Source of the DNA: Syntrophales bacterium
GTDB lineage: Bacteria > Desulfobacterota > Syntrophia > Syntrophales > UBA6807
Reading direction: 5' to 3'
Assembly: GCA_040767195.1 (NCBI GenBank)
Contig: JAXGPA010000001.1
Location: forward strand, 480,001 to 544,000
DNA length: 64,000 bases
The first letter of the stretch is position 1, and every line of letters begins with the position of its first letter. Position numbers and translations under genes: made by a program. The notes beneath the pieces are model-generated. The model was not told the origin of the DNA. It worked only from the letters and a program-made list of their open reading frames with translations, and searched no databases. Below are positions 23,322 to 59,048 of the stretch, piece after piece.

Positions 23322-25460
23322 TCACAGGCCGGGCAACGCGTCCAGCATGGATCCGTCTCTCGAGGCGTTCAGCTGGAAAGCGGCGACCGTCCCCGTGGAA
23401 GAAATCACCAGGTAAGTCGCCTCGGAAACAGAATTCCCGAAGAACTCCGACGGCTTGATGATGATTTTCCCTCTGGCCTCGAGACCGGTTGACTTCACCG
23501 CCACTTTCCCGCCTTCGTCGTTGAAGAGTTCCACGGTGAGCGTGGCCGCTTCGCCGTCGATGTTGACGACCCCGATCCCCGTTGCCCCGTCTTTTTCCAT
23601 TTTCGGCAGGATGGCCGTCAGCCCGTCGATGTTGAGGGTCTCGTGACAGGCCGCCAGGTTCACCCGGCGGAAGAAAGTCAGGCCTGTCACGGGAACGGGG
23701 GACGTGACTTCGAACCACCCGGCTTTTTCCGGAAGGGTGAAGGCCCCCGGGTACCGGAGGTTTATGGAGCTTTCCCCTTCGATGGACAAAACACTTTCCT
23801 CAAGGGGCTCTCCCCCGTCGCCGTAAGGCTTGATCGTGATGTCGCAAGACTCCCCGGATGTGTTGAAAACAACGCAATCCGTTTCCCAGCCGTTTTCACC
23901 CGCCACATGCACATTGTACAGGGCAAAGCCCCCGTCGTCCTTGAGCGGGATTCCTCCCAGCTGCCGCCCCCGGGCAAACAGGGCGACCCCTATGACGCCG
24001 TCGCCGTTTTCGATGACCGCCGACGAGAGGGACGGCCGGGGCCGCCCGTCGAAGAGCTCCCTGATGGAGAAGGCCCGCTGGTGAAGGGATTCGAGGATCA
24101 GGCTCTTTTTCGTCCCATCGTTGAACGCCATGGTGATGACCCGGCGTTCCCGGGACGTGTTCAGCAGGGCGAGCCCCGTCGCCGCCTGTTCGTTCGATTC
24201 GACATGGGGAAGGAAAAGGGGGCCCTGGTTGATGTCGCTGTTCCTGAAGGCCGGAGAAGCCGCCCGGCAGACACCTTCAAGAAACCACTTGGCATATCCC
24301 GCCACGGTCTCCGACGGGCTCGTAAAAACCGCGTAACGGACCTGGCCGGCGCTCTCGAACCCCGAACCGGGATCCCCGGCAAGGACTTCGAACCGTCCCC
24401 TGGGAGGGAGATCAACCGCTATTTCGGACACATATTCTCCGTCGTCCCGGTAACCGATGAGGACACCCTCCAGGGGGTCTTCGGCGCTTGTGTTGATGAT
24501 GGCTATTTCCGTCTCCCACCGCCCGTCGCTGACCACATAGGGGAAGTGAACGAGCTGGATGTCCTCGCAGGCCTCGATGTCCGACGCCCAGGCGACCATC
24601 CCGCCCTGCATGACATACACGAGAGGATAGCCCATGGAATCGAGAAAGCGGCCCGCCCGGTCAGCCCGGACACCGGATCGGCAGATGAGGAGGACCGGTC
24701 TGTTTTTCTGCAATTCCCCATATCTCAGCTGGAAGACCCCGGAATTCCAGGGATAATTCACGGAACCCGGAATGTGTCCTGAACAGTACTCGCTTGCTTC
24801 CCGGACGTCGACGGCCTGAACGTTTCCCGACGTCTGCATCATGACCTGGGCTTCTTCCGGCGTTATGGTGGAATGAACCAGAGGAAGGAAGTTCGCCTGC
24901 ACATTTTTTCTCGAATCGACGACAAGATCCGACGGGTTGGCGCTTCCATCCAGATCACCGGACCACTGGTCGAACCGGTATCCAGTCGCGGGAACGGCTT
25001 CGACCCGGGCCGTCGCGGGGGACGGAAAGGAAATCGTCCCGGGATAGGCGCTGATGAGGCTGCCGTTGACCTTCACCTGCCCTCCCCCGGACGGATTCAC
25101 GGAAACGGTCAGTTCCAGGATGGGGGCAAAAACGGCCGTGACGGTTTTCTGGCAGTTCACGTACAGGATGGCCGGATTGGCGCTGCCCGTCAGGTCGCCG
25201 GCCCAATGGTCGAAACGATATCCCGCACCGGGAACGGCCTGAATCTGAACGTTCCGGCCAGAGGAAAAACTGACATAGTAGGGAAAGGAAGAGACGGAAG
25301 CCCCGTCAATCCTCACGGTTCCACTGTTTTCGGGGCTGACATACACGGTCAGGCCAAGGCTGCTTCAGGCCCCTTCCGCCACCCCGGCGGCCGTTAAAGA
25401 GTAAACGAAAATCCATGCCACAAGAATTGACATGAGAACAAGAGCTCTTTTTCCTTTCAT
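23322..25460 (-). CDS. Exported putative selenoprotein (U32): signal peptide, 2 divergent InlB-B-like repeats, rhodanese domain, four-repeat surface module
   Basis: ATG 25460 gives MKGKRALVLMSILVAWIFVYSLTAAGVAEGA-TGA(25365-25367)-SSLGLTVYVSP, in frame with the 674-aa ORF. GYRFDHW.GDL repeats; DVRE..EY..GHIPG and ICRSGVRA rhodanese motifs. Confidence 0.8.
25334..25355 (-). promoter_or_regulatory. Candidate SECIS hairpin after TGA 25365-25367
   Basis: GG-C-CUGAC[CGUGUAU]GUCAG-CC at +10 to +31 from the UGA, with loop GU at +19/+20. Confidence 0.6.
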
Positions 25461-25507
25461 AAAGACACGTTCCCTTTCAGATCGAGATTTCTGCGTTTTC
25501 TTAAATT

Positions 25508-34569: not shown

Positions 34570-37281
34570 TTAGAAATCCCACGCCTCATCGAATGGGTGT
34601 TTTTTAATAGGCAACGTCGTTGAGGCCTTACCGGAAGCACCCGTCCCGTCGACCACCTCGAGGGTGATGACATGCTCGCCCTCGGAAAGCTGTTCCGCCG
34701 TCACCTCCATGCCCTGGCCGAGGGGACCGTCCAGGCTGGAAGACCAGGAGAAAACAGCCGTATCGCCGACGGGGACACCCTCCTCGTCATAAGCGGACCC
34801 GGTGAACGTGAGCGTCGGGTACTTGGTGTAGTAAACAAAGCTTCCGTCGCTGTCCTCTTGCGGCGACTTATTGACGGAAATCCGGACAACCAGTTCCCGG
34901 GCCGGCTTATCGACCCCCAGGGCGTTCAGGCTGTCCAGGAGGGCGCCGTAGGCGTTTACCTGGAGGGCGATGACGGCTTCGCTGGACGCATAGCGGATGT
35001 AATTCGCCGAAGAGACATCCGTTCCGAAGTAGTCATCGTTGACAAAGGCCACCTCCTTCGCGCCGGGCGCCAGGGTCAGTCCCTTCACGGCCACCTCGAG
35101 GCCGTCGTTGCTGTAAAGGGTCAGGGTGATCTCCGCCGGGATCTCCTGTGCGTTGAGAATGGAAATACCCGTCACGGCCGTATCGTTCAGAAGCGGCAGA
35201 ATGCCCGATTTCCCCTCGAGACGGAGGGACCGGGACCCGGAAAGAAGGGTGGCGCCGGTATTGGCAAAAAGCTCGAGGCCGTCGGCCAGTTCCTGATCGG
35301 AAACCACGGCGAGCCAGGACACGCCGGAGGAGAATCCCAACGCGCCGGGATAGGTCGTGTATTTCGAGCGGGCCTCCACGGAAACCTCCTCGGCCCCCAG
35401 GAACAGACCGGCATCGTCATAGGCCGTGATGGTCACCTGGGCGGCATTTTCCGACGGATTGACGAGGACCATCGCCGTCCGCCAGGTTCCATTTTCCACC
35501 ACCTGGGGGAAGATCTGTTCCGCGCCGGTGCGGCCCGAAATCAGGTAGGCCTCCATGGTGTGGGTGTTCATGATCTTCGCCATGGCGACCACGCCGCCCC
35601 GGGAGGGGCTCTCGTCCTTGACGATGAGATAGGACGCCCCGGAAACGGCGCCTTCGGGAAAAATCGTCCCCACGTCGACAAAGGCCTGCTGACCCGGTCC
35701 CAGGAAAAGGGGCCGGGATTCCTCGACCATCCCGTCGGCCAGGACGAGCCGAAGCGTTTTTTCCTCCCCCGTCGTGTTCACGAGGTCGACTTCCGTCGAC
35801 CACATGCTGTTGGAAGCGACCTGGCAGGCATACAGGTCGCCCTGTTCGGCCAGGGCACCGCTTCCCACCGCCGGCACCATGGCGCTGTACTTTTCGAAAG
35901 CGAAGAACCGGTTGCAGCCGACGACGGAATCACCGGAGGCGCGGAAAAGGGCGAACCCCTTTCCTTTCAGGCCGGCGTACTTGGGCTGTATCCCGTCGAT
36001 GATGAACACCTTCCTCTGAAGGGGATAGATGGTCAGTTCTTTTGGCTCGGCAGCCGCCGAGCCGTCCTGGTTGTAGACCTCGAAGGTGCCCCTCAGGGTT
36101 GTAACGCGGCTTGCGTTCACCAGGAAGATCTCGGTGCGCCACCCCTGTTCGGCGGTGACATAGGGGAAATAGAGGACATGGGGCCCGTTGACCGGTTTGG
36201 GGTCCTCCCCGGGATCCACCGGACCGGGCGGCGTCGGGGATGTTTCTGTCTGAACCGTGAACGCCATCTTGCTGACAGGCCCCGAACCCGACGAATTTGT
36301 CGGCTGAATCGACCACTCGTATGTCCCGTCGGCCAGGGCGTCGGGGATCCGGTAAGCGCACTGCCCGTCAGCGGTCACCTCATCGGCCCGGAGGGTCCCG
36401 CTGAAAGCGACGGAGGAATTTCCGCTTACGGCGAGCCGGTAGGCGGTGGCGCTTTTTTCCTCGGTCCATTTGAAAAGGGGCCTGTCATCGGAGGTCGTTC
36501 CGGAGGGCGAAATGAGCGTGACGGCCTTGGGCGGCCCTCCGACGGGAAGGCTGTGGGTCGTGAATGTGACATAGAAATTTTCGTAGAATCCCTCCTGATC
36601 GAATCCCGGATAGACGATCCCGATTCTTCCGGTCTCGTTCTCGAGGCCGGCTACGGTGTTGCCCTTGCCGCGGGAGTAGACCTTGATATAATTGAACTGG
36701 ATGTCGTTGGAGCCCTCATGAAGGACCATCTGGAATGTGACGTTGTAATCGTCTCCAAGCCCGGTAGACGAATCGAAACGAACATTTTTGAACTGAACGA
36801 TGAACTGTCTTTTTCCTGAAACCACCCGGGTTTCGTAGTACACCCTGTGCTTGTCCCCTCACGTGCCGCACGCGAACAGGTCATCCCAGAAGCCGGCGAT
36901 GACGCTGTTGATCGCATCCAACCGGTCGGGAAGACCGTTTCCCTGGTACGTCTGGCCATTGATGACGGCACCGGGATCGAAGGACAGGAGTCCGTTTGTG
37001 GCCACACTTACAGAACTGTAATACTGACCGTAAAAGTTGAAACGAAAACCAATGGGAATGTCGGGAACAACGATGTCTCCCGAAGTTCCTATCTGCACCG
37101 GTATTCCAGTCGACGTCCGCTCGATGTCCGTCCAGGAAAAAGCCGGAGCTCCTTCTTCGTGACTGTCGTAATACCGGTACCCGTAACTGTCAGGTCCCCC
37201 CGTCAGCGCCCAGGACAGAGCCGGCACGGACAGGAAGAGAACGAAAGAGAAGGCCAGGAATTTCATGACGGTTCTCTTCAT
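34570..37281 (-). CDS. Exported putative CxxU selenoprotein (903 aa, U141): nidogen-like N-domain, Ig/FN3-like domain, four-repeat surface module, PKD-like tail
   Basis: ORFs 36859..37281 and 34570..36843 share a frame and are joined by FWDDLFACGT-TGA-GDKHRVYYET. AGGAGG SD and signal peptide occur only on the upstream part; the domain continues across the TGA. Confidence 0.85.
36823..36849 (-). promoter_or_regulatory. Candidate SECIS hairpin after TGA 36859-36861
   Basis: CAC-A-GGGU[GUACUACGAA]ACCC-GG-GUG at +10 to +36, loop starting GU at +18/+19; less canonical than the other two. Confidence 0.5.
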
Positions 37282-44076: not shown

Positions 44077-44493
44077 TCAGGCGCCGGGGAGTTTCAGGGT
44101 GGGGGTGAGATCGACGCGCCAGGCGCCCTTCTCCCATACCCACGTGTCCTTCGCTGTCAGGTCGAAGACGAACGCCTTTACCCCGACCCTGTATTTTACG
44201 GCCACCTCCGCCTTGTCTTCCTTATCGAGAAGGGTCACTTTCTCGATCTCGAAATGTTCGATGTTCAGGTTCGCCGACTTGACGAATCTCACCCGGGACA
44301 CTTGTCTCTTGAATTCCTCTGTGGCCAGATCGTAAGCAGCCCCCCATTCACCGTTCATTTTGGCCGTCCAGAACGCCGTCACGTTCTTCATGAGATTCGC
44401 CTCCGTCTTGCCGTAACCCAAAAGGCCGGCACAGGAGACCAACAGAAGAAGGCCAACGGCGCAGCACAAAACCTTTACCGCTCCATTCATCAT
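44077..44493 (-). CDS. Hypothetical lipoprotein
   Basis: Lipobox LVSC; NTF2-like W.A....W..AY and W..E.G.W pattern; overlaps the stop of the upstream gene. Confidence 0.7.
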   Translation of the reverse strand: MMNGAVKVLCCAVGLLLLVSCAGLLGYGKTEANLMKNVTAFWTAKMNGEWGAAYDLATEEFKRQVSRVRFVKSANLNIEHFEIEKVTLLDKEDKAEVAVKYRVGVKAFVFDLTAKDTWVWEKGAWRVDLTPTLKLPGA

Positions 44494-45647
44494 TTCGTTT
44501 CCCCTTGATCTTTCTGCAGCATGAGCTCCCTGTGCTTTTCCGAGAGTTCTTTCCAGAGTTTCTTCGCCTCCTCGAACATTCGTTTATCCACGTCCGCGTC
44601 CCTTGTTTTCATTTCTTCGGTGAGCTTCTTGTAAATGTCGTCCGGCGCGGACCCGATCATCCCGGCGATCCGCGGATCGCCCGGCACGGACCGGTCCAGG
44701 GAAACGATCCCGTTCTCCCCCGGGACTAATTTCCCCGTCTCTCCCCGTATGAGGGTGGCATAGCCGAGGTCCTTTCCCATGTAGTTGGCCCGGTAAACGG
44801 GAACGCCGGACGGGGCGTCACCGGGAGCCCCCGCTTCTGCTCCACCACCGGAACCGCCGCAGTCGCCCGTTTTTTCCTCGAAGGCCGCTGATCCGCCCCC
44901 TTCCGAAAACGGGGAGGCGTCGTTTCCGCAGTAGATGACGAGATCCAACCCCTTCAGTCCGTCCACGACTTCAAGGGTTTCCTTCCTGCCGCAGCTCGAA
45001 AGGAGAACGACCCCGTCCGCTTTTTTCCGCACTTCCGGGATGAGGCTTTCGAGAACGCTCCGGGGGGATGAGACTTGAAAGTTTTTCCCCTCTTCTCCCG
45101 TCAAGGCGGCGATGTTCTCCTGAAGCCTGGGAGGCAGGACACCGATGAAGGCGATCCGGGACTTTCCGGCCTCCACGACGGTGTAAGGCACCCAGAAGGG
45201 ATTCAAAGCGCCGCTATATTCAAGATTCGCCGCCAGGAAGGGAAAAGACGCCTTTTCTCTCACATGATTAAGAAAATCAATGCCATGGGAGAATTCGTTT
45301 TCGCCCAGATTGAGCGCCCTCACGTTCATCGCCCCCAGGGTGGTGACGCCCAGTTCCGCAAGGACCTGAAGTTCCTTAAAAGAATATCGGCTCACGGGAA
45401 AGAGGTTCCCCGCGTCCACCAGGATGACGGGACCCTGTTTTTTTTCCAGTTCATCGATAACCCACTGTGTTCGGGCCAGACCGCCCGAATTATTTCCCCC
45501 TCACCCTCGGACAGGCGTCAGCCGCCCGAGGAGGTCTCCCGTGTAGACAACGGTGACCCTCGTTTCCTCTTCGGCTGAAAAAACAACGGCGGGAAACAAG
45601 GCAATCGCGCACAGAACGAGGGCGCAGGCCCACATCTTTCTCATCAT
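44490..45647 (-). CDS. UshA-like (5'-nucleotidase N-domain) exported putative selenoprotein, 385 aa, U49
   Basis: ORFs 45501..45710 and 44490..45419 are in frame: signal peptide-VVYTGDLLGRLTPVRG-TGA-GGNNSGGLAR...LVDAGN...LGENEF...PFLAAN; GGAGG SD before ATG 45647. Confidence 0.9.
45470..45489 (-). promoter_or_regulatory. SECIS hairpin after TGA 45501-45503
   Basis: Perfect 7-bp stem UUCGGGC[GGUCUG]GCCCGAA; GGUCUG at +19 to +24, the same offset as in the E. coli fdhF SECIS. Confidence 0.8.
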
Positions 45648-45716: not shown

Positions 45717-48176
45717 TTATTCGGTGAGACCGTCGCCCATGAGGCGCGTTCCGTCCCCCGTGGCGATGAGGTAAAGGCCGCACAGGGGCGTGTCTCCCGA
45801 CGAGATCCTGACATAACGGGCCTCCCCGGCCAGGGCCGCTCCGAAAAGATTTTTCAGGGTTCCGGCGATGCGCTCCCGGGGATTCAGCCGGCCCGTCCAC
45901 GCGCCCAGGGGGGCGCCCCCGGCGTCGTGAAGGGTCATGGTCACGTCCGTTGCGCCGTCGGAGGGATTCAGGACGGCCACCCCCGTTCCCCAGGGACCCA
46001 GGCTCGCCACGTGGGGCAGGTGAAGGACAGGCCCCGTCGCGGGCGCCCGAAGGGGAACCCCCGCCAGCTGGCCTCCCGTATTCGTACTGAAGAGAACGCA
46101 CCCCGTCAGCGGCTCGCCTTCCCGGGAGGTCACTTCCAGGGAGGCGATCTCACCGGGTAAGACGCCGGGAAAGATATCCGGAACGTCCCGGACGAGATTC
46201 TGGCCCGGCTTCAGGAGGCAGCCCGCCTCGCCGAGGAGCCAGCCGTCGGCCCGGTAAGCCCGGAAGACCGCCCGGGTGTCCCCGGCGCCGCTGTTCATGA
46301 CGAGGAGTTTTGTCCGCCAGTAAGCGTTGCAAGCCACCTGGGGGGCAAAAAGACGGGTCCCCGCCCCCTCCCGTCCCAGGGGGACGAGGGCCGTGTCGCC
46401 CGTCGATGACGACTCGTATGAGAGCTTCATGTATCCCAAAAGGGACGGCCGGCCGCTCGTCGTCGCGGCGGTCATGGTGTTCCCTCGAACGGGAGAATTG
46501 GGAAGGACCCAGAGATCTTTCGTATTCGATTCAAGTTTCTGACCCGGCCCGAGGGTGACCGTGTCGGTCCGCAGCGGATGGCCCTCGGAATCGAAGGACC
46601 GCCGTTCCACCTCCTCCGTCTCGTCGCCCGTGTTGATGAGCCCGTAAAAGGTTTTCCACCCGCCCGATCTCGCTGAATAGGGAAAGGAGACCTGTTCGAC
46701 CGCCCCGGTTTGGGAAAGGAGATTGGCGCCGTAGAGAACGCTTTTCCCCTCCGATAAGGCGTTCAGTCCTCTCAGGGTCTCGTCGCTGTCCACCCGGACA
46801 TACCCGCCTCTCGTTGAACCGAGTCCGAAATCGGCCAGAGTCCCCCTGACCTGGGAATCGAGGCCGTTGAACTCGTGAGCCTCTTCAATCCGCCCGGCCG
46901 GATCGATGGTGGCCAGGATGACCCGGCCCAGGGACCCGTCGGGATTGAGAACGGCCATCCCGTTCCCCAGGCTTCCGCCGGGGTCGTCCGGAAAATAGGC
47001 CGTGTTTCCCAGGCGCACGCTGAGGTAGAGATCGTAGACCGGTTCGTAGTAGGTCGTGTCGGAATAATAATCGGGCCTGACGGGAAGAACCTCGAAATAG
47101 TAGTGACCGGCTGCGTACGCCGTCAGCTCCAGGACGTCCTGATGAAGCAGCGTTCCGAGACGCTGCCGGTCGGGATCGGGACCGTAGACCTGGACGATAA
47201 CCTGCCCTTCCCTGGGGGGCGTGCCCTCACCGTTCACCCGTTCCGCCGTGATCCGGTCCCCCGGACCGAGAAATACCTTGAAAAAGTCGGCATTGCAGGA
47301 CATGAGCCTCAGGTGGCCTCCCGGGACGGCCGCGGCCGTCTCGAAGGTGTCGTTCTCCTCGTAGCGGTCATCGTAGGTGTAAACGATGTCCCGGACCCGC
47401 GCGTAGTCGATGCCGGGGTTGAGGCAGTCCCGGACGGGATCGTAGGATGAAACCCCGGCGCTTCCCCTTTCCCAGCCGCTTCCGGTGATCCGGCTTCCCT
47501 CGAGGGTGAAGTAATAATAAAACGTTTTCGCCGCTATTTTCGATCCCACGTAGTCCGGGGAGACTTCGTCGGAAACATAGTAGACTTTCGTCGTGTAATG
47601 CCGGGTGCCGCCCTCTTCCGTGTAACCGGTCTCGTACTTGTAGACGGGGTAATTCCAGACCTCATCGTCGGTGCCGAGATCCATGATGAAGGGGAGACCC
47701 CGCTCTCTGATGTATTCCTCCAGAATGGCATGGAATTCTTCCGGTGTTTCCGTTCGCAGGCGGATGCTTTTCGTGTAGGCGTTGTCGTTCGCCACGGTGA
47801 GAAGGGCCTTCTTGTCGCCCACGTAAAAAATCGTTTCCCCGTAAAATCCGCCGTTTACCGGTTCTTCCTCGAGGATGGCCGCCGCCGCCCAGCAATAGCA
47901 CATTCCCTCCCAGTACTTGGCGAAAGGATTCCGGTAATACCTCATCCCGTAAGCCGTCGCTTCTCCCCCGTACGTTCCGGAGGTGACGAAATCATATTTC
48001 TCCAGCGGCGACGGATGGCCCCGGTAGGCAGCTCCCGTGACAAGCCCCCCCTGCCTGAAAGGCCACCAGTACCCGGACCAGGGCACGTAATCGGCCTCGT
48101 ACGTGTCCGCCGCGGCGGACAGGGGAAAGGCAAGAAGAAGGGCCAGAAGGACCGCCGCGATCGATTTCCCGCTCAT
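45717..48176 (-). CDS. Exported protein: transglutaminase-elicitor-like N-domain, PPC-like domain, four-repeat surface module
   Basis: Signal peptide from ATG 48176; PWSGYWWP, SPLEKYD, WEGMCYCWAAAA, VWNYPV motifs; DDRYEENDT. Confidence 0.7.
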   Translation of the reverse strand: MSGKSIAAVLLALLLAFPLSAAADTYEADYVPWSGYWWPFRQGGLVTGAAYRGHPSPLEKYDFVTSGTYGGEATAYGMRYYRNPFAKYWEGMCYCWAAAAILEEEPVNGGFYGETIFYVGDKKALLTVANDNAYTKSIRLRTETPEEFHAILEEYIRERGLPFIMDLGTDDEVWNYPVYKYETGYTEEGGTRHYTTKVYYVSDEVSPDYVGSKIAAKTFYYYFTLEGSRITGSGWERGSAGVSSYDPVRDCLNPGIDYARVRDIVYTYDDRYEENDTFETAAAVPGGHLRLMSCNADFFKVFLGPGDRITAERVNGEGTPPREGQVIVQVYGPDPDRQRLGTLLHQDVLELTAYAAGHYYFEVLPVRPDYYSDTTYYEPVYDLYLSVRLGNTAYFPDDPGGSLGNGMAVLNPDGSLGRVILATIDPAGRIEEAHEFNGLDSQVRGTLADFGLGSTRGGYVRVDSDETLRGLNALSEGKSVLYGANLLSQTGAVEQVSFPYSARSGGWKTFYGLINTGDETEEVERRSFDSEGHPLRTDTVTLGPGQKLESNTKDLWVLPNSPVRGNTMTAATTSGRPSLLGYMKLSYESSSTGDTALVPLGREGAGTRLFAPQVACNAYWRTKLLVMNSGAGDTRAVFRAYRADGWLLGEAGCLLKPGQNLVRDVPDIFPGVLPGEIASLEVTSREGEPLTGCVLFSTNTGGQLAGVPLRAPATGPVLHLPHVASLGPWGTGVAVLNPSDGATDVTMTLHDAGGAPLGAWTGRLNPRERIAGTLKNLFGAALAGEARYVRISSGDTPLCGLYLIATGDGTRLMGDGLTE

Positions 48177-48880
48177 TCCGTCACCATCCCGTATTCCATG
48201 TCGGCGTTTCTCCCGAAAAGACAAAAGGGCCGCCCCTCTTCCCAGTACTGGGTGAAGATCTCCCGGCCGCCCTCGCCGGTGACCCGGATTTCGATGAGCT
48301 TACGGTCCCGGAGTAACGGCGGAACCCCGTCGGGGTTCGTCACTTCCCGGACTTCCTGGGCCAGGAGGACTTCCCGGTAGAGCCCGCCGCCCGCGGCAAT
48401 CTCCCGCCGGTACGTCCGTACCGAGGGCACCTGGGCGGGAAAGGCGGGGAAATCGAAGGGGACGAGGGATTTTTCGGCGACAGCGGGCGTCCCATCGGGG
48501 TATTCCAGGGTGAAGGTCACCGCCTTTCCCCGCCGGCTCTGGGTGAGGTCGGCCCGGACCAGGGACCGGGAACCGCTGAATTCCAGGCGGGCCGCCTGGT
48601 CCAGGCGCCCGCCGGCGTCCCGCACCTCCACCGCCGTGCCGCCCGGCACGGCGGCTTCCCGTGACGGGAGGGGGAGGAAACGCCAGGTAACCGGTTCGGA
48701 CCATTTCTCCCGATCCAGGGCCGAGCGGTAGACGGCCCGTACGAGCCAGGCCTGTCCCTCGCCGGGAATCACGGGCTGAAAGACCGCATCCGCCGCGGCC
48801 AGGAGTCCCGGCGCGAGGGCCAGGATCACCGCCAGCCCGGCGGCTGTCGCTTTTCTCTTGAATGACGCAAACCGTCCCAC
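48173..48880 (-). CDS. Exported hypothetical protein
   Basis: Signal-peptide-like N-terminus; ATGA overlap with the next gene indicates coupling. Confidence 0.65.
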   Translation of the reverse strand: MGRFASFKRKATAAGLAVILALAPGLLAAADAVFQPVIPGEGQAWLVRAVYRSALDREKWSEPVTWRFLPLPSREAAVPGGTAVEVRDAGGRLDQAARLEFSGSRSLVRADLTQSRRGKAVTFTLEYPDGTPAVAEKSLVPFDFPAFPAQVPSVRTYRREIAAGGGLYREVLLAQEVREVTNPDGVPPLLRDRKLIEIRVTGEGGREIFTQYWEEGRPFCLFGRNADMEYGMVTE

Positions 48881-48965: not shown

Positions 48966-50306
48966 TTAGAAGCCCGCGTTCATCAACGGAGACAGCATGT
49001 CGTAGAGCCAGGACTTCATGGCCCACTCGACGGCATAGCCGCAGGGCCGCGCCATGGTGCTTCCACCGAAACCGCCCAGGAGCACGAACTCATAGCCGTC
49101 GGCCGGGAAGTTGGTCTCGATTTTCATCATCATGGGACCGGATGCGAGGCTCCCCATGCCCAGAGCGTCGAAGGTGTCTTCGTCCAGAACCCACGTCACG
49201 ATGGACTTGTCGAAGTCGGTGAGCTTCTTGGAGAGGGTGTTACCGTACTGATCGGTGAACGTCACCGTCACTTCCATGTCGGCAATGGAAACGCCGCCCA
49301 GGTTCGTCAGGGCGATTCCCGTAGCCCAGTTGTCGTCCTTCCCGATGACATAGGGGAAGTAGATGCAGCCGCCCATGAGCGTGTCGTCGCAGCACATGAT
49401 GCCGATTTCGATTTCGCACGCACACACGTCATCACAGGTGGGGCAAACGCCGCCCTTGCCGGTGACGAGTTCCGCGAGGACCTTCACGGTCTGCCCGGGA
49501 ACGATTTCCGACTTGACATACCACATGGCCGGCACGTTGAAGAGCCAGTAGTTGGTGCCTTACATTATTCCTTGGCATCGGCTGATCACGTAGCCGTTGT
49601 CCGTAGCCGTGCAGATCCGTGGCCGTGCAGATCTGCTTGACTCTCGCCGCCTCGGTGGTCGTGGGTTCGCAGACATCCTTGAGGTCCTGAACTCCCCTTT
49701 CGTGAGCAGCTTGTCGCAGGTGACGGCGGATCCCGTGGAACCGGGGGTCGTGAGATAGAGAAGAAGATCGCCACAGTTGAAGTACTGGGGGTTCTTCATG
49801 TAACGGGGATACTCATCGGAGCAGGCCAGTTTCAGATCGGTGAAGGTCTTCACGAAGATCTCGTCGCCCATGAAATACACGCCGTTCCCCTGGGTGATGG
49901 TGAACCGGAAGCCGACCGTGTTGCCATCCTCGAGAAAATCTTCAGGATCTTCGCACTCGCAGACGTCGAAAATCAGGCGGCAGTTCCGTCCAAGGATGCC
50001 GGACATCGCTGATCCATCACCGTTTGTTTTATAATGCGAGGGAAGATCGATACCCAGTTTCGAGAGATCGGCGTTGCCCAGGCAGGCCCAGCCCACCAGG
50101 TCGTGCTCATTCGGATATTCACCGATCATATCCCAGTCGAAATAGGTGCAGCACGGGTCCCCCTGTCCGAGGGTTATGCCGCAGTTGATGTTCCAGAGGG
50201 GACACTTGCAGTTCAAGCAAGCAGCCGACTCATCCGCCGCGGCCGCCGTCATGGCGAAGCCCATGACGAGCGCCATAGCCATCAGAGTAATCAATACTTT
50301 TTTCAT
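48966..50306 (-). pseudogene. Cysteine-rich putative major surface (S-layer-like) protein; frame broken at about 49560-49700 (possibly an assembly error)
   Basis: Signal peptide MKKVLITLMAMALVMGFAMTAAAA; many Cys pairs; C-part in another frame ends with CIYFPYV....WATGIALTN. Own promoter, GGAGG SD and terminator. Confidence 0.7.
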
Positions 50307-50431
50307 TATCTCCTCCATAGAAATTTTTCTGTCTTAAACGTACCCATCTACTTTTTTACAAAGCCTTTTTTCCCTGTCTCACACCCCTCCTTTCTTTTTT
50401 TCTTTCCTTGTCCAGCCCTTACTTTCAGGAA

Positions 50432-56711: not shown

Positions 56712-58949
56712 TCACGGGACCTCGGGGATGTCATAATCGATGATCGTTTCCGCCTCCCCGTTCAGATCGAGTTTCACCACGCCGATGCCCTCGCCGAGCC
56801 AGTAGTAGAGAGGCGGCAACGCATAGGTATCGCTACCCACATAAGATATAAAAAAGGAGTTTTTAGACTTAATCTTGATGTCTTGGGAAATCCGGATGAC
56901 GTTCCGGTAAAGGGAATCCCGGCTCGTCACATCCTCGATACCGACGATGGTGGTCTTGATCTCGATGCTGAGCGGTATATCCATACTAAAAATACCGCTA
57001 GATACTCTTATTGTGGCCGTCGTCGTGTCCTCGTAGACCTGGCCGACCTGGATGTTCTTGGGTATATAAAGGAGCGGCGCATCGAAAAGGACGTCGCCGA
57101 TCGGCAGCGGCTGGCCACCATTTTCCCTTAAGACGTAGTACATGCCGTGAAACTTGATCCCGTCGGCATCGCTCGTGAAATACTGCTTCGTTCCCGTGTC
57201 GTACTGGTAAACCAGGGTGGTGGCCTCCGAAACCGGTTTCGTCCCGCTAATGTCCGTCCGGGTTTCTTCACCCGACTCCTTTTCGTAGGTCCACCAGCTT
57301 CCCAGCACGAGGGGAAAGTAGTCCGACGCCACGTAGGCGGAGGGGTCGACGGACACGGCGGCGGTGGCGCTTATCTCGCCAATTTCGGCGGTCACGGTGG
57401 CCGCGCCGACTTCCTTGCCCTTCACGAGGCCGGCCTGGCAGATCGAATTCTCCACCGAGGCGGTCCCGCTGTTCGACGAGGTCCAGGCCACCTGGTCCGT
57501 GATCTCCCGGCACGTCCCGTCGGAATACCAGCCAAAGGCGCCCAGGCTGGCGGTCTCATGGATTTTCAAGGCCAGGACGTCGGGCATGATTTCAATGGAC
57601 GTGAGCACGGCCGGGGCCGGGGCCGGGTTCAGGCTTCTGATCGAGTCCAGGGTCTGACCGTTGGTGGAGGCGTTCATCTGGAAGGCCACCACCTTGTCTT
57701 CCGACGCATAGGCCAGGTAGGTGGCCCCTTCAGGCTTTGTGCTGAAAAGATAGTTCATGGAAGCCAGCGGCTCGCCCACCGGAAAAACGAAGGCCACCCA
57801 TTTCTGCCGGGGCCCGAGATTAATAACGGTGCTGTCGATCACGTCTCCCCCGTCGTCACAGGCATCAACGTTGACGGATGTACTTTCGGCATTGTCGTTC
57901 ACAAAAACGACGCCGGTCGCCGCGGAACCCGTTTCGATCTTCGGCAGGATTCCCGTCGTGGCCCCTTCCCGGGGCCCCATGTATCCGGCCAGCTGCCTGC
58001 TGTGGGCGAAAAGCTCAAACCCCGAGAGGGGCCTGGTCGCCGTGATTTTGGCCCAGCCGTCGGTGATGCCCAGTGGCAGCGTGCTCGCCAGGCGACTGAT
58101 CCGTTCGCCCCCTTTCAGGAGAAGATCGACAGGGGGCCGGGCCGTTCCGCCCGTCGTAAAAGGGGAAACGGTGATCGTGCTGTCCTGGTAGCTGGTGTTG
58201 TAGGCCACGATCCCCGTGTTCCACCCTCCGGTCATGACGAGATGGGGGTAATAGACCTGAAGGGCCACCTGGTCGTCCAGGGGAATGCCGTCGAGGACCC
58301 GGCCGTTGGAAAAGAGGATGAGTCCGACGATGCCTTCGGCCCCCCGGATTTTGGCCGCGCTGATCCTGGGCTGGGGGGTATCGTCGAAAAGCGCTCTCAT
58401 GAAGAAAACCTCGTGGCGCCCGGCCGCCACGGATTTCGTCTTCGTGATGCCCGTATCGAACTCGAAGCACATGTCGATGGCGGCGTCCGTCGTGTTGACG
58501 ACGCTCACGCCCGTGGCCCAGGTGTCCGTTGAGGCGATGTGGGGAATGAAGATTTCCCCCCGGGCCGGCGATTGACTGGCCGGGATGGCGACGCTGTATT
58601 TCAGGGGATCCTGAAATTTCAGGTACCCCACGGCGTTATCAGAAGTGGTGGAAAAAACGAGGTAGCCGATCGTTTTCCCACCGGCATAATCCCGGACAAG
58701 GTCGGCGCCCCAGAAAACCCGCTTTCCCCGGGGCGGCAGGGTCACGTCGATCTGGTCGATGAGAGCGCCGCTGTCCTCGTGGAGATCCAGGGTTCCCGAG
58801 ACGGAATCGCTGTCGCTTCCGTTGATCAGGCCGATTTCCGTTTCCCAGTAAGCGTTACTGGCAAAGTGGGGATAATAGAGATCCCCGTGGGCCGGCGACA
58901 GGGCCGTGAGTATAAGAGCCAGGGCGGCGAAAGCGATTTTCTTTTTCAT
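56712..58949 (-). CDS. Exported protein: N-terminal four-repeat surface module, Big_2 Ig-like domain, C-terminal beta-rich domain
   Basis: Signal peptide; four P-x-W-x-T-x-N repeats; YSDGT..EIT..V.WTSSN (Big_2); YFPL..G..WTY...W...GIGVVK. Confidence 0.8.
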   Translation of the reverse strand: MKKKIAFAALALILTALSPAHGDLYYPHFASNAYWETEIGLINGSDSDSVSGTLDLHEDSGALIDQIDVTLPPRGKRVFWGADLVRDYAGGKTIGYLVFSTTSDNAVGYLKFQDPLKYSVAIPASQSPARGEIFIPHIASTDTWATGVSVVNTTDAAIDMCFEFDTGITKTKSVAAGRHEVFFMRALFDDTPQPRISAAKIRGAEGIVGLILFSNGRVLDGIPLDDQVALQVYYPHLVMTGGWNTGIVAYNTSYQDSTITVSPFTTGGTARPPVDLLLKGGERISRLASTLPLGITDGWAKITATRPLSGFELFAHSRQLAGYMGPREGATTGILPKIETGSAATGVVFVNDNAESTSVNVDACDDGGDVIDSTVINLGPRQKWVAFVFPVGEPLASMNYLFSTKPEGATYLAYASEDKVVAFQMNASTNGQTLDSIRSLNPAPAPAVLTSIEIMPDVLALKIHETASLGAFGWYSDGTCREITDQVAWTSSNSGTASVENSICQAGLVKGKEVGAATVTAEIGEISATAAVSVDPSAYVASDYFPLVLGSWWTYEKESGEETRTDISGTKPVSEATTLVYQYDTGTKQYFTSDADGIKFHGMYYVLRENGGQPLPIGDVLFDAPLLYIPKNIQVGQVYEDTTTATIRVSSGIFSMDIPLSIEIKTTIVGIEDVTSRDSLYRNVIRISQDIKIKSKNSFFISYVGSDTYALPPLYYWLGEGIGVVKLDLNGEAETIIDYDIPEVP

Positions 58950-59048
58950 TCCGTCGGATTTCTCCTTAGATCGTTATTTTTCAGTAAAAGAAATTTAATT
59001 TGCAAGATCCGGACCGCTCCGAAAAAAGCCCCGCCATCACGGGCCCGG

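Follow-up and report, generated by a model that had tools for sequence, protein, structure and literature searches.

The window, a stretch of 64,000 nucleotides of Syntrophales DNA, carries on its minus strand a gene whose reading frame is crossed by a TGA codon near its beginning. An ATG at 25460, preceded by a purine-rich stretch that its sequence context marks as a likely ribosome-binding site (25471-25477), opens 31 codons that end VAEGA and have the make-up of a signal peptide (25368-25460), with a basic n-region, a hydrophobic h-region and a polar c-region ending A-E-G-A. The next codon is TGA (25367-25365), after which 680 sense codons follow in frame up to a true TGA stop (23322-23324) at the conserved C-terminus of the family described below. 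Read through, the gene would encode an exported selenoprotein of 712 residues with selenocysteine (Sec, U) at position 32. A hairpin resembling a bacterial SECIS element, with the core CTGAC-CGTGTAT-GTCAG, spans +10 to +31 from the TGA (25334-25355). The called ORF of 674 aa starts downstream of the TGA, at a GTG (25346-25344) that falls within the loop of this hairpin, and among the 15 members listed of the 30 in the protein's database cluster none exceeds 674 aa. A scan of the locus for promoters found none.

Beyond the TGA lie two divergent InlB B-repeats (Flg_new_2, Pfam PF18998; the two stretches score 69.1 bits against a gathering threshold of 23.6), the first at 25122-25355 and the second at 24888-25109. 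The first carries a lone cysteine, Cys103 (25152-25154), in YVNCQK; the second reads VVDSRK and has neither a cysteine nor a hairpin. A rhodanese domain follows (PF00581; 24582-24863), whose active-site Cys260 (24681-24683) is kept in CRSGVR, and the protein ends in an all-beta region of about 410 residues (23325-24560), DUF5719-like and made of three modules similar in sequence. An earlier note on this DNA had described the leader, the TGA, the in-frame ORF and the hairpin, as well as the cysteine that repeat 1 has and repeat 2 lacks and the retention of the rhodanese cysteine; re-reading the letters and the translation confirmed all of this.

Repeat 1 is all-beta (AlphaFold2 pLDDT 95) and weakly resembles CnaB-type pilin/adhesin domains (best Z 7.1, rmsd 2.5, 77 residues), some of its fold matches bearing the titles of cross-linked adhesins. 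No sequence match to the repeat was found among solved structures, and Foldseek returned nothing at E up to 0.001. The last tail module has the fold of the ASRAH superfamily: it superposes on 1nc7 (TM1070) with Z 12.9 and rmsd 2.1 (99 aligned; residues 312-412 of the region) and on 2ii7 (ASRT) with Z 10.9 and rmsd 2.7 (94 aligned), and it is the only module that gave a Z above 8. The TM1070/ASRT fold occurs in secreted proteins and has been proposed to bind glycans (PMC2739507, available part).

The TGA cannot be put down to faulty assembly, because the contigs of all four public runs that span the codon, one from the possible source study and three from other studies, show the same letters at 25365-25367. 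Within the hairpin these contigs differ at a single place, among the variable loop positions; the stem shows no difference. In RNA runs the stretch occurs as contigs only (possible source study).

On our reading of the translations, genes between 17454 and 43958 are glycosyltransferase-like, ABC-exporter-like and MBOAT-like, and the gene appears to sit in a surface-polysaccharide cluster. The C-terminal region of about 410 residues is common to three other genes of the window. A gene at 34570-37281 (minus strand) has a signal peptide, the same C-terminal domain and a TGA at 36859-36861, codon 141, in C-G-T-U, while its N-terminal domain gave no Pfam or NCBIfam match. In its homologs (L039, at 1729; L062/L063; L082/L188; L183) the TGA persists together with a 6-bp hairpin, which shows 3 two-sided changes in 5 sequences and is not formed in the window's predicted fold; the gene is probably a second unlisted selenoprotein. 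A UshA-like (seleno)protein gene of a known kind lies at 44490-45644 (minus strand), with a signal peptide, a TGA at 45501-45503 in V-R-G-U and a 7-bp hairpin; its best match is NF041198, at 119 bits against a cut-off of 275. Two further minus-strand genes (45717-48299 and 56712-58973) encode exported proteins with the shared C-terminal-type domain, a transglutaminase-elicitor-like region and Big_2, with no in-frame TGA seen, and 49560-50333 (minus strand) encodes a Cys-rich exported protein with no NCBIfam match.

The order signal peptide, TGA, InlB-type repeat recurs in 35 distinct genes, from which near or exact duplicates (L084, L105, L237, L238) were excluded; the median repeat identity is 40%, with 16 clusters at 60% identity, both computed on 27 of the 35. 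Protein similarity brought in 27 members and a TGA-plus-hairpin pattern the other eight. The site column holds TGA in the 35 genes and TAA or TAG in none, the eight pattern-found members being unable to test the TGA or the hairpin, both of which the pattern requires; ten TGA examples are the minimum given in the available part of the Haft preprint. Members are kin, so that family counts overstate independence.

The DNA pattern searches returned 28 loci: the eight new members, three already known (the window gene, L237 and L238) and 17 chance matches, out of frame or in short frames, that were set aside. Patterns for the C-terminal domain fetched 78 and 74 loci, giving 181 reading frames, among which every InlB-type repeat in first-domain position is preceded by a signal peptide and a TGA. 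A profile search of 400 genomes of the phylum found one member, already known, the remaining matches being internal repeats, and a homology search of representatives was dominated by multi-repeat proteins. Distant database homologs are all called from the same register, leaderless. Record titles of the family loci include Syntrophales-type and Desulfosudaceae genomes, among others.

What follows the signal-U-repeat module varies: the shared domain of about 410 residues, other repeats, choice-of-anchor U, CFI-box-like ends or, in four members, almost no tail. Two of these four (L235, L243) consist of signal, U-repeat and short tail only. The other two (L253, L254) end directly after the first repeat (82 codons) and may be minimal proteins or decayed copies of the L249 type. 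A genome holds up to five copies of the module. Two genomes (G689, G714; L269-L280) have six paralogs each: TGA stands at the site in five, and the sixth, with Cys, lies directly downstream of one of these. In the two Cys copies, L273 and L274, the U column reads TGT and similarity runs through the site; both are one residue shorter after it, and they are probably a single lineage. A genome search turned them up, and no full-length ortholog with Cys emerged from the protein searches. The earlier note had proposed that a residue other than Cys at this site in homologs would speak against its reading. Both sense-codon relatives with DNA in hand do have Cys, while one database protein, P0215, known from its protein record on a 984-base contig, has Trp there and keeps the partner Cys. 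At the 12 places among its relatives TGA is found 10 times and Cys twice, and a gene call made under a TGA=Trp code is a plausible origin of the Trp.

The hairpin is as widely distributed as the TGA. In the window it has a 7-nt loop (CGUGUAU), a stem of 5-7 bp and a spacing of 17, with -7.8 kcal/mol over 45 nt. It fits the bacterial SECIS model (loop of 3-9 nt, stem of 4-16 bp, G at loop position 1-2, spacing of 16-37 nt, MFE of -7.5 or below; PMC13188914, available part), its MFE being borderline against the -7.5 limit, and it resembles the hairpins of the four TGA-bearing formate dehydrogenase genes of the same assembly. Stability was rejected as evidence, since the window copy folds no better than shuffled sequences (z = +0.73 and +0.64); the weight of the hairpin comes from its conservation across the family. 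The core TGAC-CGTGNNN-GTCA is present in 35/35 members (in the eight pattern-found ones by construction), with the loop starting 17-23 nt past the TGA, and loop position and loop G agree with the published model. The full 5-bp stem is formed in 17 of 17 post-TGA repeats versus one of four internal repeats, where 5.6% would be expected under uniform codon choice. Five cells of the stem show two-sided changes, a value reached in none of 500 shuffles (20 members, with counts inflated by kinship), and in L249, L253 and L254 a stem pair is flipped while both encoded amino acids change. The Cys paralogs provide a natural control: nothing of the core is left in L274, and L273 has lost part of it, retaining a weaker stem in a shifted position. 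Taken as a whole, the sequence comparisons strongly support a role of the family hairpin as a SECIS directing Sec insertion, and it is very probable that these genes form a real and apparently unlisted selenoprotein family whose codon is read as Sec. Of 70,288 TGAs in six frames, a genome-wide scan for such hairpins retained 22, most of them by chance; the window gene and the UshA-like gene were among them, and the second TGA family and the formate dehydrogenase genes were missed.

Export of the protein is strongly supported by its predicted leader, and the leaders of the family look like substrates of type I signal peptidase. In 18 of the 24 members scored, the residues ahead of U conform to small-x-small, and a polar stretch of 7-18 residues separates the hydrophobic core from U. 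Type I cleavage would probably leave U at +1 to +4, the family pattern pointing to +1 or +2; in the window, cleavage at A-E-G/A-U would place it at +2. The proposal of the earlier note that Sec would be the first residue of the mature protein, or close to it, is supported.

Its second proposal, a Se-S partnership between U32 and the YVNC cysteine, is upheld by covariation. A first-repeat Cys is present in 34 of the 35 members, compared with any Cys in 193 of 1672 internal repeats; at the YVNC column itself the figures are 15/24 TGA-first repeats and 6/1672 internal repeats. The Cys of the 35 members is at the YVNC column in 19, around positions 32-36 in nine, in an insertion after the conserved Trp in three, adjoining U in two (UC in L242, UxC in L240) and elsewhere in one (L138, at the opposite pole); the repeat of L116 has none. 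The Cys paralog L274 has CxC, and both Cys paralogs have lost the distal Cys. Contact inference from 1,309 repeats groups columns 33-39, 57-59 and 71-74, with V10, G16, Y50 and F80 at the other end. Residues 1-4 are too gapped for this approach (gap fraction 0.7-1.0), and it is from the contact grouping together with a predicted strand at 5-11 that we infer a location of the N-terminus at the Cys pole of the first repeat, where the other partner sites also lie. Selection for one Cys near the N-terminus is strongly supported by these alignments, and pairing of Sec with the first-repeat Cys appears likely.

These elements can be assembled into the following scheme. SelB would read the hairpin and Sec be inserted at UGA 32, a step with strong sequence support; signal peptidase I would then strip the leader, leaving Sec at the new N-terminus or a few residues from it; and Sec would form a selenenylsulfide with Cys103, which is presumed to share its end of the first repeat, as the covariation suggests. 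The signal-U-repeat unit would be a portable module attached to varied surface-anchoring tails, here an ASRAH-like tail whose fold suggests that it anchors the protein on surface glycan, the rhodanese being an optional passenger. Display on the cell surface through the C-terminal region would follow from the modelled fold. At the outer tip, the reversible Se/S centre might exchange with extracellular thiols or polysulfide, or bind a soft metal. Selenolates reduce more strongly than thiolates (PMC7346207, available part). Surface proteins tipped with a redox- or metal-reactive Se/S centre are the reading that we favour on the sequence data, with a probability of roughly 0.6.

The bond between Sec and Cys103 could instead serve as a structural clamp, a self-forming and reduction-resistant staple that shields the N-terminus in anoxic, sulfidic habitats. 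This would suit the single Cys that a repeat usually has, placed at one pole, the likeness of the domain to CnaB-type pilin domains, with cross-linked adhesins among the matched titles, and selenolate redox potentials shifted by about -246 mV from those of thiolates (PMC7346207, available part). The fold does not need such a bond, however, as the rarity of Cys at that column in ordinary repeats shows; the UC and UxC members would be unable to staple the domain, and the Cys paralogs discarded their distal Cys instead of retaining a disulfide. We regard the clamp as rather unlikely and prefer the reactive tip because ordinary repeats lack the bond, the partner may adjoin U and minimal members exist.

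A free N-terminal aminoselenol, displayed on the pilin-like domain, might also act as a covalent hook, forming Se-S bonds to thiols of surface proteins or of partner cells, or capturing thioesters. We think this distinctly unlikely; if it were true, the proteins would take part in cell-surface stitching or in attachment to a syntrophic partner, and selenium would be used for adhesion and not for catalysis.

An improbable alternative concerns the codon itself, which could be a true stop, with a leader peptide and reinitiation at the GTG, an old nonsense mutation, a Trp codon or a site of SECIS-dependent Cys insertion. A GTG does stand 7-9 codons past the TGA in all 24 members scored. It belongs, however, to the invariant loop, and in the window no purine-rich ribosome-binding site was found in the sequence upstream of GTG 25346, so that the cytoplasmic start which the earlier note had set against its own reading was not borne out. 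A dead gene would not retain TGA, hairpin and long frame over 16 clusters. The Trp of P0215 favours another residue, but the only tRNA-Trp found in the assembly reads TGG. In this genome TGA closes long open frames more often than any other stop, and it terminates 45 of the 119 tail-family genes; such normal use as a stop counts against the Sec reading, and it also weighs against the codon having another sense. The selC* tRNAs are known to act at UGA. Cys-inserting selC* tRNAs are named in PMC5389517, in the available part of which UGA recoding is not addressed.

The selenocysteine machinery belongs to the same question. The assembly that contains the window has selA and selB above cut-off and the four formate dehydrogenase genes with TGA, but profile and tRNA searches of it found neither selD nor tRNA-Sec; for the latter, ARAGORN at a low threshold gave noise only and pattern scans gave nothing. 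A congener has both, and the genes that flank selD and selC in the congener are likewise missing from the window's assembly. Among them are housekeeping genes whose sequences we read as uvrA, mfd, alaS and dnaX. Contig C1 of the assembly stops just short of a syntenic tRNA-like match and, although the assembly is rated 98.8% complete, searches of it found no tRNA-Ser, tRNA-Asn or tmRNA, and it lacks several housekeeping genes. A considerable portion of the genome is probably unassembled and, because the flanking genes and any tRNA-Ser are absent too, the lack of selD and tRNA-Sec is probably an assembly gap. Among 15 other carrier genomes, not counting two that carry only the second TGA family, selB was found in all 15 and tRNA-Sec in 13. 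Since the Sec trait is common in these relatives (tRNA-Sec in 10 of 13 regardless), this co-occurrence is consistent with Sec and discriminates little. On C1 (720241-720279, outside the window), 39 bases in an AT-rich stretch match the 3' end of the congener's tRNA-Sec at about 90% identity; this piece is possibly an integration-site remnant of a selC-targeting element.

That the N-terminal Sec passes sulfur or selenium to or from rhodanese Cys260, as the earlier note had suggested, seems highly improbable as the purpose of the module. The rhodanese keeps its Cys, four database proteins truncated at about the same register also appear to join repeat and rhodanese (P0100 and P0149 as whole proteins, P0161 and P0187 over the matched range; protein records only), and an Rrf2 gene (PF02082; 25508-25921, minus strand), possibly a regulator, is directly upstream. 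Only three of the 35 members have a rhodanese, however (the window gene, L038 and L039), while five genes that combine rhodanese and tail are led by a signal peptide of their own and lack the TGA module, and it is for these reasons that a relay cannot be the general purpose; in the window protein, two repeats would moreover stand between the sites. Apart from the window, the Rrf2 gene is directly upstream in L038, L039 (4253-4645) and L234 (854-1282), at 3 of 32 loci, mostly with short flanks; in L039 it lies between both kinds of TGA gene.

The seleno-lipoprotein also raised in the earlier note, in which Lgt would lipidate Sec and signal peptidase II cut before it, has very little chance of being right: 11 ordinary lipoproteins do have Cys a few residues ahead of the same repeat, but 0 to 6 residues separate it from their h-region, as against 7-18 here; no lipobox stands directly behind the h-region, the strict pattern fitting 0/24 sites and a looser PROSITE-like rule 3/24, with the window gene failing both; small-x-small prevails ahead of U; and lipidation of the Se would leave it unable to pair with the Cys that covaries with it.

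No paper on this family was found in literature searches, BSepDB and subscription journals lying outside their scope, and no NCBIfam model scores above cut-off for the window protein. None of the 119 families in Table 1 of PMC13188914 (2026) is described as an InlB/Flg_new_2 repeat protein, and the word InlB is absent from the available text of that article, of PMC13326102, PMC12013277 and PMC13745706 and of the Haft preprint. Two features may have kept the family hidden: with Cys homologs rare (2 versus 35) and Sec behind a signal peptide, pipelines that rely on Cys homologs can overlook it, a limitation acknowledged in the available part of PMC12013277, and databases carry these proteins as truncated and leaderless. 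A domain of about 80 residues would offer a testable unit for the extracellular role of selenium in anaerobes.

Several known systems resemble parts of this protein. The rhodanese-like selenoproteins of forms 1-5 (PF00581 UxxS/UxxG, NF041203, NF045694 TsoB) likewise combine a rhodanese domain with Sec; the window active site, in contrast, keeps Cys, with Sec 228 residues upstream in another domain, and the protein scores 17 of 115 bits with NF041203 and 21 of 805 with NF045694. In a relative, L016 (G032:C7:260626-260949), which gave a rhodanese-like match and is crossed by one in-frame TGA, is probably such a known selenoprotein. SaoB, SaoX and SaoC (bioRxiv 10.1101/2022.07.06.499078, available part) are also Sec proteins with signal peptides, whose clustered Cys/Sec have been proposed to bind metal; they differ in being ABC substrate-binding or CC-COOH proteins with an internal or C-terminal Sec, and the window protein has no NCBIfam match to them. 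Secreted ASRAH proteins (the TM1070/ASRT superfamily; DUF5719) share the C-terminal fold, the predicted glycan binding and the secretion, but the available part of PMC2739507 describes dyads and tetrads in actinobacteria and chloroflexi, whereas here three sequence-similar modules occur in Desulfobacterota-type genomes. In InlB-repeat lipoproteins, too, a chalcogen residue stands a few positions before the repeat; here the leader is type I-like without a lipobox and the partner Cys is present. The comparison with CnaB-type pilin/adhesin domains is one of fold only, and a weak one (Z up to 7.1). With the bacterial selenoproteins that depend on SelB and SECIS, as listed in the available part of PMC13188914, the family shares the in-frame UGA, a consensus-fitting hairpin directly downstream, Sec machinery in carrier genomes and the existence of Cys homologs, which are rare here. 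It differs in that Sec would be about the first mature residue of an exported surface protein, on a repeat that is not an enzyme, while the bacterial selenoproteins on record are mostly enzymes or redox proteins of the thioredoxin-like type.
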